Shown: piece after piece, positions 7,956 through 8,976 of the stretch
How positions within the stretch are numbered: the first letter of the stretch is position 1
How the letters are laid out: the number at the start of each line of letters is the position of its first letter
Sequence record: OK331996.1
From: Escherichia phage vB_EcoM-G157lw
Strand: one strand, 5' to 3'
DNA length: 64,000 nucleotides
Notes under the pieces: generated by a model
The model's input: the letters and a program-made list of their open reading frames with translations, nothing else
Told to the model about the DNA's origin: nothing
Database searches by the model: none
Position numbers and translations under genes: made by a program

Positions 7956-8028
7956 TGGGAATTAGCCAAGTTGGTAAGGCACTGGATTTTGATTCCAGGA
8001 TGCAAAGGTTCGAGTCCTTTATTCCCAG
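7956..8028 (+). tRNA. tRNA-Gln (anticodon UUG)
   Basis: Hand-folded cloverleaf: acceptor tgggaat/attccca, anticodon loop ttTTGat, T-loop ttcgagt. Confidence 0.8.
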
Positions 8029-8029
8029 C

Positions 8030-8116
8030 GCGAGAATGGTCAAATTGGTAAAGGCACAGCACTTAAAATGCTGCGGAATGATTTCCTTGTGGGTTCGAGT
8101 CCCACTTCTCGCACCA
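8030..8116 (+). tRNA. tRNA-Leu (anticodon UAA), type II, CCA encoded
   Basis: Acceptor gcgagaa/ttctcgc, anticodon loop ctTAAaa, long variable arm. Confidence 0.8.
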
Positions 8117-8121
8117 AATTT

Positions 8122-8195
8122 GCGGATATCGTATAATGGTATTACCTCAGACTTCCAATCTGATGATGTGAGTTCGATTCTCATTATCCGCTCCA
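8122..8195 (+). tRNA. tRNA-Gly (anticodon UCC)
   Basis: Acceptor gcggata/tatccgc, anticodon loop ctTCCaa. Confidence 0.8.
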
Positions 8196-8205
8196 ATTTA
8201 ATTTA

Positions 8206-8279
8206 CTCCGTGTAGCTCAGTTTGGTAGAGCGCCTGATTTGGGATCAGGAGGTCCAAGGTTCAAATCCTTGTATGGAGA
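8206..8279 (+). tRNA. tRNA-Pro (anticodon UGG)
   Basis: Anticodon stem cctga/tcagg, loop ttTGGga; acceptor with two G-U pairs. Confidence 0.75.
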
Positions 8280-8281
8280 CT

Positions 8282-8371
8282 GGAGGCGTGGCAGAGTGGT
8301 TTAATGCACCGGTCTTGAAAACCGGCAGTCGCTCCGGCGACTCATAGGTTCAAATCCTATCGCCTCCGCCA
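8282..8371 (+). tRNA. tRNA-Ser (anticodon UGA), type II
   Basis: Acceptor ggaggcg/cgcctcc, anticodon loop ctTGAaa, long variable arm. Confidence 0.8.
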
Positions 8372-8376
8372 GTTTT

Positions 8377-8452
8377 GCTGATTTAGCTCAGTAGGTAGAG
8401 CAACTCACTTGTAATGAGAAGGTCGGCGGTTCGATTCCGTCAATCAGCACCA
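8377..8452 (+). tRNA. tRNA-Thr (anticodon UGU)
   Basis: Acceptor gctgatt/aatcagc, anticodon loop ctTGTaa. Confidence 0.8.
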
Positions 8453-8453
8453 A

Positions 8454-8528
8454 GGCCCTGTAGCTGGAAGGTTCAAGCAAGCGACTCATAATCGCCAGAT
8501 GGTGGTTCAATTCCACCCAGGGCCACCA
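8454..8528 (+). tRNA. tRNA-Ile, anticodon CAU (lysidine type as in T4; formally Met by sequence)
   Basis: Acceptor ggccctg/cagggcc, anticodon loop ctCATaa. Confidence 0.7.
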
Positions 8529-8540
8529 AATTATGAATTA

Positions 8541-8627
8541 GGGGAGTTATCCCGTAGAGGTAGCGGTGTGGACTGTAAATCCATTGTCATTGCGACTCGG
8601 GTGGTTCGACTCCATCACTCCCCACCA
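8541..8627 (+). tRNA. tRNA-Tyr (anticodon GUA), type II
   Basis: Acceptor ggggagt/actcccc, anticodon loop ctGTAaa, long variable arm, T-loop ttcgact. Confidence 0.7.
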
Positions 8628-8631
8628 ATTT

Positions 8632-8706
8632 GGATGTGTAGCTCAATGGCAGAGCGATCGCCTGTTAAGCGATTGGTTATAGGTTCGAATCCTATCACGT
8701 CCGCCA
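8632..8706 (+). tRNA. tRNA-Asn (anticodon GUU)
   Basis: Acceptor ggatgtg/cacgtcc, anticodon stem atcgc/gcgat, loop ctGTTaa. Confidence 0.75.
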
Positions 8707-8820
8707 AATTTGTGACAGTTGTCACATTAATATCTACTTGACGCGATTATCGGGGTTGAACTGATCACTCTTCTCTTAATTTCGTGTGAAGACATCTTGA
8801 TTGTTGGAGTAGGTATTAAT

Positions 8821-8896
8821 GTGGCCGTAGTTCAGTTGGTAGAACTCGAGATTGTGATTCTCGTAGTCATGGGTTCGACTCCCATCGGTCACCCCA
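8821..8896 (+). tRNA. tRNA-His (anticodon GUG)
   Basis: Anticodon stem cgaga/tctcg, loop ttGTGat, T-arm atggg/cccat. Confidence 0.75.
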
Positions 8897-8900
8897 ATTA

Positions 8901-8976
8901 CGGGGCATAGCTCAGAAGGAAGAGCAAGGACCTTCTAAGTCCTAGGTCGTAGGTTCGATCCCTACTGCCTCGACCA
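8901..8976 (+). tRNA. tRNA-Arg (anticodon UCU)
   Basis: Anticodon stem aggac/gtcct, loop ctTCTaa, T-loop ttcgatc. Confidence 0.8.

Follow-up and report, generated by a model that had tools for sequence, protein, structure and literature searches.

An eleven-gene, segB-free tRNA cluster in Escherichia phage vB_EcoM-G157lw and a conserved RNA fold in its one long spacer

The 64,000-nucleotide stretch of Escherichia phage vB_EcoM-G157lw analyzed here (OK331996.1; hereafter the window) contains a cluster of eleven transfer RNA (tRNA) genes at positions 7956-8976. The related phage T4 has eight, and the locus raises two questions: whether the T4 set has simply been enlarged, and what is held in the single long spacer that interrupts the cluster. 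Our results indicate that the locus is very probably the unit from which an ordinary Tequatrovirus of E. coli transcribes its tRNAs and stable RNAs, in its fullest, segB-free form. Over its first 24 kb the window is about 97% identical to E. coli Tequatrovirus genomes such as JY01 and Sa45lw. The unit lies on one strand and comprises the eleven tRNA genes, a structured RNA, a small open reading frame (ORF) and genes of the rnaD and rnaC type, bounded by a promoter-like site (about 7860) and a terminator-like hairpin (about 9655).

All eleven tRNA genes were placed on the plus strand by ARAGORN, which found no further ones in the 64-kb window. Each scored at or above the 29-bit gathering score of the Rfam model RF00005, and ten of the eleven fell at 59-74 bits (E about 1e-10 to 1e-14). 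The series opens with tRNA-Gln (UUG; 7956-8029; 67.4 bits), a gene common to T4 that abuts tRNA-Leu (UAA; 8030-8116; 59.3 bits), and continues with tRNA-Gly (UCC; 8122-8195; 65.8 bits), tRNA-Pro (UGG; 8206-8280; 66.8 bits), the abutting tRNA-Ser with its long variable arm (UGA; 8282-8371; 62.6 bits) and tRNA-Thr (UGU; 8377-8452; 72.9 bits). A tRNA with a CAU anticodon, of the Ile2 (lysidine) type, follows (8454-8528; 59.9 bits), then tRNA-Tyr, which has a long variable arm and an atypical D-arm (GUA; 8541-8627; 30.2 bits), tRNA-Asn (GUU; 8632-8706; 74.1 bits), tRNA-His (GUG; 8821-8896; 65.1 bits) and tRNA-Arg (UCU; 8901-8976; 66.1 bits). A preliminary description of this DNA, made from the letters alone, had proposed eleven tRNAs by hand-folding; the two programs agreed exactly with its order, anticodons and boundaries, and the covariance model accepted the three folds that it had offered for challenge (Tyr, Asn and His). 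The spacers between the genes measure 0-12 nucleotides (nt), with the single exception of a 114-nt gap at 8707-8820. The Gln and Pro genes have no encoded CCA end either here or in T4. The Ser and CAU genes encode CCA here, at 8369-8371 and 8526-8528, and not in T4, so the phage should rely less on the host CCA-adding enzyme.

Comparison with the T-even phages indicated how the cluster differs from that of T4. In T4 (NC_000866, 70.9-72.5 kb) the order is Gln-Leu-Gly-Pro-Ser-Thr-Ile-segB-Arg-rnaD-rnaC, with eight tRNAs; the preliminary description had given this number correctly and had taken Tyr, Asn and His as extra, which the T4 annotation bears out. T2 (AP018813) carries nine tRNAs in the order Gln-Leu-Gly-Pro-Ser-[ORF]-CAU-Tyr-Asn-Arg-[ORF], and T6 carries seven in the order Gln-Leu-Gly-Thr-CAU-Tyr-segB-Arg, with a SegB that is 95% identical to the T4 protein. 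The window set is the union of the T4, T2 and T6 tRNAs, plus tRNA-His, which is found in none of the three.

BLAST of the window against T4 gave 96.5% identity over 7787-8473, where the homology stopped about 20 nt into the CAU gene, and 94.8% identity over 9343-9687 (rnaD, rnaC and terminator), with no T4 counterpart for 8474-9342. The genes at the edges of this gap are of different alleles. The CAU gene of the window is identical to that of T2, while T4 and T6 share another allele; tRNA-Arg is identical to the T2 gene at 74 of 76 positions, and the T4/T6 Arg allele is unrelated to it in sequence. In T4 and T6 the CAU and Arg genes of the shared alleles are the two that flank segB. The distinct alleles, together with the lack of a T4 homolog for 8474-9342, argue for replacement of a cassette and not for the addition of three genes. 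Judged from the alignments, 8474-9342 is swapped for the T4 cassette made up of the 3' part of Ile, segB and Arg. The word "expanded" in the preliminary description thus holds insofar as there are three genes beyond the T4 set, and fails insofar as it implies simple addition to that set.

Apart from this segment the T4 cluster is much the same: it occupies the same genomic position between the same flanking genes, with its first six tRNAs and about 20 nt of the CAU gene 96.5% identical, and with rnaD, rnaC and the terminator about 95% identical. It differs in having segB, in lacking Tyr, Asn, His, the structured element and a 116-amino-acid ORF, and in its alleles of Ile(CAU) and Arg. The T2 region is closer within the segment, being segB-free, with the CAU and Asn genes identical to ours (Asn at 75 of 75 positions), Arg at 74 of 76, Tyr present and the ORF after Arg 89% identical. 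It differs in having an ORF in place of Thr, in lacking the structured element and tRNA-His, and in an Asn-Arg gap of only 4 nt. The window thus shows the features of a T2-type cassette: no segB between CAU and Arg, and CAU, Tyr, Asn, Arg and downstream ORF of the T2 type. No seg-like ORF was present within 7900-9000 and no similarity to the T4 segB segment was found, in keeping with the absence of a seg gene in the preliminary description.

A history for these alternatives is suggested by published work on segB. The gene is missing from T2L, RB1 and RB3 (PMC2330249, Brok-Volchanskaya et al. 2008), and the T2L version of the tRNA region was published there in 2008. The 27-bp site that SegB prefers, within which the T-loop motif GGTTCRANTCC occurs, was mapped to the 3' end of the tRNA-Asn gene of T2L. 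When T4 was crossed with T2L, 99.6% of the progeny carried segB, and the T2L segment with Met(CAU), Tyr, Asn, Arg and two ORFs was lost (PMC2330249). The T2L region is the demonstrated target allele of SegB (PMC2330249). In the window the corresponding motif GGTTCGAATCC lies at 8681-8691 within tRNA-Asn, where we predict a SegB site, taking T2 (AP018813) as equal to T2L here. Since the window and T2 Asn genes are identical, the window would carry the homing-target allele. In T4 the segment from the start of the CAU gene to rnaD is a different cassette, consisting of an Ile allele, the homing endonuclease gene segB and an Arg allele. SegB would cut the Asn gene of segB-less phages and convert the locus to its own cassette, which would leave T4 without Tyr, Asn and His. 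By analogy with the crosses, then, the eight-tRNA set of T4 may be read as a converted state. In the Klebsiella phage Mineola (Jiaodavirus) a gene for a SegB-like homing endonuclease lies between tRNA-Gly and tRNA-Pro, suggesting that seg-type endonucleases have colonized tRNA clusters more than once.

The eleven-tRNA cluster is already known and is ordinary for Tequatrovirus. The 1.1-kb cluster was found at 80% coverage or more in 317 phage records, the best matches being 98.7-99.4% identical. The record of vB_EcoM_G50 (MK327942) annotates the same eleven tRNAs in this order and places the same small ORF and terminator after them, and two metagenomic contigs repeat the tRNA order. The clusters of G50, PinkRuby, slur02 and SH7 share the gene order at 98.7-99.4% nucleotide identity and differ in nothing of substance; the spacer is unannotated in their records and is 100% identical in G50. 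At 80% coverage or more, 250 records contain the window-type segment and 126 contain the T4 segB segment. The database also contains many mixed forms, such as Tyr-Asn-Arg without His and Tyr-segB-Arg. A literature search on the Tyr/Asn/His set in Tequatrovirus gave nothing relevant within its coverage, which leaves out older subscription literature.

The 114-nt spacer was the least expected part of the cluster. The preliminary description had noted it as the place where T4 has segB and had found in it a small hairpin (tgtgac-agtt-gtcaca, 8711-8726, plus strand). The spacer and the hairpin are both there, yet the spacer holds more than a small hairpin. An alignment of 17 sequences, with the consensus fold and covariance model built on it, defines a conserved structured RNA element at 8718-8828 (plus strand). 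A long closing stem, P1, pairs 8721-8739 with 8807-8825 through 18 consensus pairs, and its base uses nt 2-5 of tRNA-His. It opens into a junction, and inside it lie P2, an invariant 3-bp helix of GCG (8743-8745) with CGU (8783-8785); P3, a variable hairpin at about 8752-8772; and P4, a 4-bp hairpin of GACA (8791-8794) with UGUU (8802-8805) that closes a 7-nt loop. The P4 loop reads UCUUGAU in the window and UCAUGAU in most copies, and in SEA1 it has 5 nt.

Several measures supported the fold. The minimum free energy of the spacer was -30.7 kcal/mol (z = -2.8 relative to shuffled sequence). Across the consensus of 30 pairs, 97.1% of the alignment cells form standard pairs, compared to 40-50% when the partners are slid by 1-3 columns, and double-sided changes were seen in 11 pairs, compared to 1-5 in the slid controls. 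On none of the five measures did any of 500 shuffles reach the observed value. In P4, for example, the second pair occurs as G:C, U:A, A:U and C:G. Cells with G·U outnumber those with A·C by 92:1, and an antisense reading would lower the standard pairs to 78%; the excess indicates that the fold belongs to an RNA read in the same direction as the tRNAs, rather than to an inverted repeat in the DNA. At least three unrelated forms of the P3 arm occur, and their mosaic distribution does not follow the genus borders (Jiaodavirus has two, one in Mineola and another in M12a and W2-7), which suggests modular exchange within the element.

The base of P1 is shared with its neighbors. In some copies an upstream tRNA abuts the element and its CCA end forms part of the 5' strand at the P1 base. 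In the Tequatrovirus copies, the only ones with the 5' arm of the small hairpin, the 3' arm of that hairpin doubles as the 5' strand of the lowest part of P1, so that the two pairings are alternatives, and the P1 base competes with the tRNA-His acceptor stem as well. As a conjecture from the modeled fold, these competing pairings might point to alternative structures.

By itself the spacer matched 355 phage records, at 95-100% identity in Tequatrovirus, 85-87% in Karamvirus and an Erwinia phage, 79% in Jiaodavirus and 76% in Gelderlandvirus, with further matches in Roskildevirus and one Vequintavirinae phage. The element is found in the tRNA clusters of at least six genera of Straboviridae and of one Vequintavirinae phage. 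In covariance-model searches, clusters with the element yielded a single copy each, and the T4, T2 and T6 loci yielded none. No family in Rfam 15 matched the spacer 8707-8820 at the gathering threshold or at a permissive E of 1 or less. Searches of 5,426 E. coli genomes gave no match to the element, and a strict 27-nt pattern had none in 185,579 GTDB species genomes. Strict-pattern scans returned only 5 viral contigs and 13 from metagenomes, most of them nearly the same as known types, and thus widened the known diversity little; all 13 metagenomic copies lie within phage tRNA clusters. The usual position of the element is 0-1 nt upstream of tRNA-His, although it also occurs without His, in the arrangements Asn-element-Arg (UFV-AREG1 and contig L033), element-Asn (SEA1) and Gly-element-Gln (W70). 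No paper describing the element was found; older subscription literature was outside the coverage, so a prior description is possible.

That the spacer encodes an apparently undescribed structured RNA of about 110 nt, which could be a new small stable RNA or a folding or processing switch for the adjacent tRNA, is a proposal that we consider about as likely as not. On our preferred reading it could be freed from the tRNA precursor as a small RNA or could act as a maturation switch for the neighboring tRNA. The nearest parallel is provided by rnaC and rnaD of T4, non-tRNA RNAs of about 120-140 nt that lie inside the tRNA transcription unit and have no assigned function; like them, the element would be released from the tRNA precursor. 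It differs from them in having no sequence or model similarity to either, in lacking a T-loop-like motif and in a closing stem that extends into the start of the following tRNA. Kinship with rnaC and rnaD was rejected because T4, T2 and T6 gave no match to the covariance model. Other candidates were also set aside. Permissive Rfam matches to YrlA and Plastid-ycf2 were weak echoes of tRNAs or of antisense strands. A hammerhead was rejected because the motif CUGAUCA departs from the core CUGAUGA at the catalytic G, is not present in the Gelderlandvirus version and goes with no Rfam match. A tRNA-like P4 was rejected because its loop varies in sequence and length and has C where U33 is expected, and a host origin because of the empty searches of the E. 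coli and (strict pattern) GTDB genomes.

What might the tRNAs of this unit do? In T4 the tRNA unit is transcribed as polycistronic precursors that are processed by host RNase P and 3' nucleases. By analogy, the unit described here would be transcribed as polycistronic precursors and cut to mature tRNAs by host RNase P and 3' trimming, with the host CCA-adding enzyme completing Gln and Pro. The products would top up the host pool for a genome of 35% G+C. Codon usage was examined in 72 ORFs of the window (47.7 kb, 35% G+C) against a general E. coli K-12 table, a limit that applies to each ratio given here. The A-ending codons read by the eight T4-type tRNAs are used at 1.4-3.7 times the E. coli frequency: AGA at 3.7, TCA at 2.45, ATA at 2.35, GGA at 2.3, ACA at 2.2, TTA at 1.9, CAA at 1.5 and CCA at 1.4 times. 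Tyr (1.59 times) and Asn (1.42 times) are the most enriched amino acids after Lys, and the tRNAs for both would meet an over-represented demand. His is not enriched (0.85 times). Over these ORFs, the codon-usage check proposed in the preliminary description supports a supply role for Tyr and Asn but not for His.

Several points weigh against this account of the locus. Transcription, processing and aminoacylation in this phage are projected from T4 biology. The direction of cassette replacement was demonstrated only for T4 crossed with T2L and is extrapolated to the window. The E. coli codon table behind the enrichments was a general one and not computed for the comparison. Codon supply does not explain tRNA-His, with His at 0.85 times, and the missing encoded G at position -1 (G-1) of this tRNA, described below, should impair its charging by the E. 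coli histidyl-tRNA synthetase (HisRS).

Alternatively, the main reason for keeping Tyr, Asn and His might be that defence systems or toxins cleave the tRNAs of the host, which the phage copies would then replace. Their anticodons (GUA, GUU and GUG) make them three of the four GUN-anticodon tRNAs, and sister genera also carry the fourth, Asp. These four form the queuosine family, and colicin E5 cleaves exactly the GUN family. This pattern, together with a His gene that codon demand leaves unexplained, would suit a role against defence. Phage tRNAs can stand in for host tRNAs lost to defence systems, as in T5, where tRNA-Tyr guards the phage against retron-Eco7, a system whose effector PtuAB degrades the tRNA-Tyr of the host (PMC11555353). 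The T5 gene has the same GUA anticodon and long variable arm and is about 85% identical to that of the window. T5 belongs to another phage family with another genomic context, and the protective role was demonstrated for T5 only (PMC11555353). The Tyr and CAU genes of the window are also about 95% identical to the copies in Vequintavirus (rV5-like), which, with the T5 match, indicates that unrelated phage families have exchanged tRNA genes. Against such a role, no feature of the sequence bears on it directly; the anticodon loop of tRNA-His is the same as in E. coli hisR, with no sign of the escape by loop mutation proposed in PMC10264068; and the demand for Tyr and Asn is truly raised, so supply alone suffices for those two. 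We consider replacement of destroyed tRNAs possible but unlikely as the main reason for which the three genes are kept. It is compatible with codon supply, and both may act together.

The tRNA-His gene itself is unusual. It has a GUG anticodon, C73 and an encoded CCA, and the position before its first nucleotide (-1, at 8820) is T and not G. The same T is found in the Karamvirus, Gelderlandvirus, Jiaodavirus and Roskildevirus copies, in contrast to the G of E. coli hisR. G-1 establishes the identity of tRNA-His (PMC10100707). In E. coli, G-1 is encoded in the genome, consistent with the G at -1 of hisR, and is the major determinant for HisRS. The phage gene might accordingly not make a standard elongator tRNA at all; it might be poorly charged and survive as a decoy, as a gene in decay or because it travels with the structured element. 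The T at -1 in all five phage genera examined would fit this, as would the under-represented His codons and the almost constant linkage of tRNA-His to the element upstream. This reading is harder to reconcile with a 65-bit score and with retention of the gene in at least five genera, the pattern expected of a tRNA under selection. Moreover, the anticodon and T stems of the gene differ in a compensatory manner in IT22, Melville and Mineola, with GUG, C73 and CCA kept, and this covariation between genera argues that the gene is under selection. We regard the non-elongator reading as improbable. No description of a phage tRNA-His without G-1 was found in the literature covered, from which older subscription literature was excluded.

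The spacer in turn might be only an internal promoter, a processing leader or filler without function. A TTGACG at 8738-8743 does resemble a -35 hexamer, and T4 tRNA clusters use processing stems. However, the sigma-70 scan listed no promoter-like site in 8707-8820 and no -10 element at 16-18 nt from the hexamer, and by eye the spacer contains neither a MotA box nor the late promoter motif TATAAATA; the promoter reading was rejected. Against these readings stand the conservation in 355 records across genera, the 11 covarying pairs beyond the reach of every shuffle and of the slid controls, and the G·U excess, which is specific to a sense-strand RNA; a pure processing stem would have no need of the conserved P4 hairpin and junction sequences. 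The filler reading is largely refuted, and we hold all three versions to be very doubtful.

The marginal score of tRNA-Tyr (30.2 bits, with the threshold at 29) was examined separately. Its acceptor, anticodon and T stems are kept across the homologs in T5, Vequintavirus, Jiaodavirus, an Erwinia phage, T2 and T6, and the anticodon stem shows double-sided changes among them (C:G/U:A and G:C/U:A/A:U). The D-arm and variable arm were parsed by hand, since the RNAalifold consensus failed to recover that part of the cloverleaf. The low score is due to the long variable arm and the unusual D-arm and not to decay. That any of the eleven genes is a pseudogene or was called in error, as the Tyr score and the labels "tRNA-Pseudo" or "tRNA-OTHER" on homologs in some GenBank records might suggest, is extremely unlikely given that two independent methods agree on all eleven, that the Tyr stems covary, that the annotation of the T5 ortholog says it can be converted to an efficient amber suppressor and that T5 tRNA-Tyr rescues from retron-Eco7 (PMC11555353).

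The CAU gene was labeled "Met" by ARAGORN. Among E. coli genes the best match over its full length, at 81.6%, carries the annotation tRNA-Ile; its anticodon arm resembles that of E. coli ileX, and its acceptor stem (GGCCCUG/CAGGGCC) contains C4:G69 and C5:G68, pairs which we take to be determinants for TilS. In a tRNA of this type the host TilS would turn C34 into lysidine, and AUA would be decoded. The acceptor stem and the tRNA-Ile match make Ile(CAU) the better call, and the assignment to Ile in the preliminary description is backed, at the level of sequence, by this match and an Ile2-like body.

The remaining parts of the unit flank the tRNA genes. Upstream, a promoter-like site at 7860-7886 (plus strand), read from the sequence, consists of TATGCTTTA at 7860-7868, a 12-nt gap and TATTAT at 7881-7886. 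It resembles what we take to be the consensus of T4 middle (MotA-dependent) promoters, lies in a region that is 96.5% identical to T4 and was not listed by the generic sigma-70 scan. A 10-bp hairpin (caagggctct/agagcctttg, loop tgcttg; 7922-7947, plus strand), conserved with T4, ends 9 nt upstream of tRNA-Gln. The two probably form the promoter and the precursor-processing stem of the unit.

Downstream of tRNA-Arg lie parts that the preliminary description did not pick up, namely the counterparts of rnaD and rnaC and the extra ORF. The ORF of 116 amino acids (8993-9343, plus strand; phrog_3355, with no functional assignment) stands between tRNA-Arg and the rnaD-like RNA. It is 89% identical to an ORF in the same position in T2 and has no counterpart in T4; among the T2L ORFs named in PMC2330249 it is probably the equivalent of either trna.1 or trna.2. 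Its stop codon overlaps the start of the rnaD counterpart (9340-9459, plus strand), which was placed by homology to T4 with boundaries good to about 1-2 nt. The 3' end of this RNA (9455-9459) reads CACCG, compared to CACCA in T4, so the tRNA-like CCA terminus is not encoded here. The rnaC counterpart (9466-9604, plus strand), also placed by homology to T4, carries the T-loop-like motif GGTTCGAATCC. An intrinsic-terminator-like hairpin with a T run follows at 9655-9678 (plus strand); it is conserved with T4 and is annotated as a terminator in phage G50. Between it and the e.8 homolog is a segment of about 520 bp (9688-10207) without a T4 counterpart, which holds an ORF of 157 amino acids (9729-10202; phrog_2280). 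Neither Pfam nor PHROGs assigned a function to any ORF within the cluster or next to it.

As a discovery the cluster itself is minor. It does show that T4, the textbook reference, has a smaller tRNA set, probably the work of a homing endonuclease, and is atypical because of segB, the eleven-gene form being about twice as common among sequenced relatives. The larger interest lies in an RNA fold that is backed by covariation, has no Rfam family and occurs in one of the most studied groups of phages, where it was overlooked because the three classical T-even phages, T4, T2 and T6, all lack it. It is physically coupled to a conserved phage tRNA-His without G-1, and to our knowledge both are undescribed. 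Together the two offer a tractable system for the maturation and use of a tRNA that the host synthetase should disfavor, and the element raises the question of whether phage tRNA clusters carry more than tRNAs.

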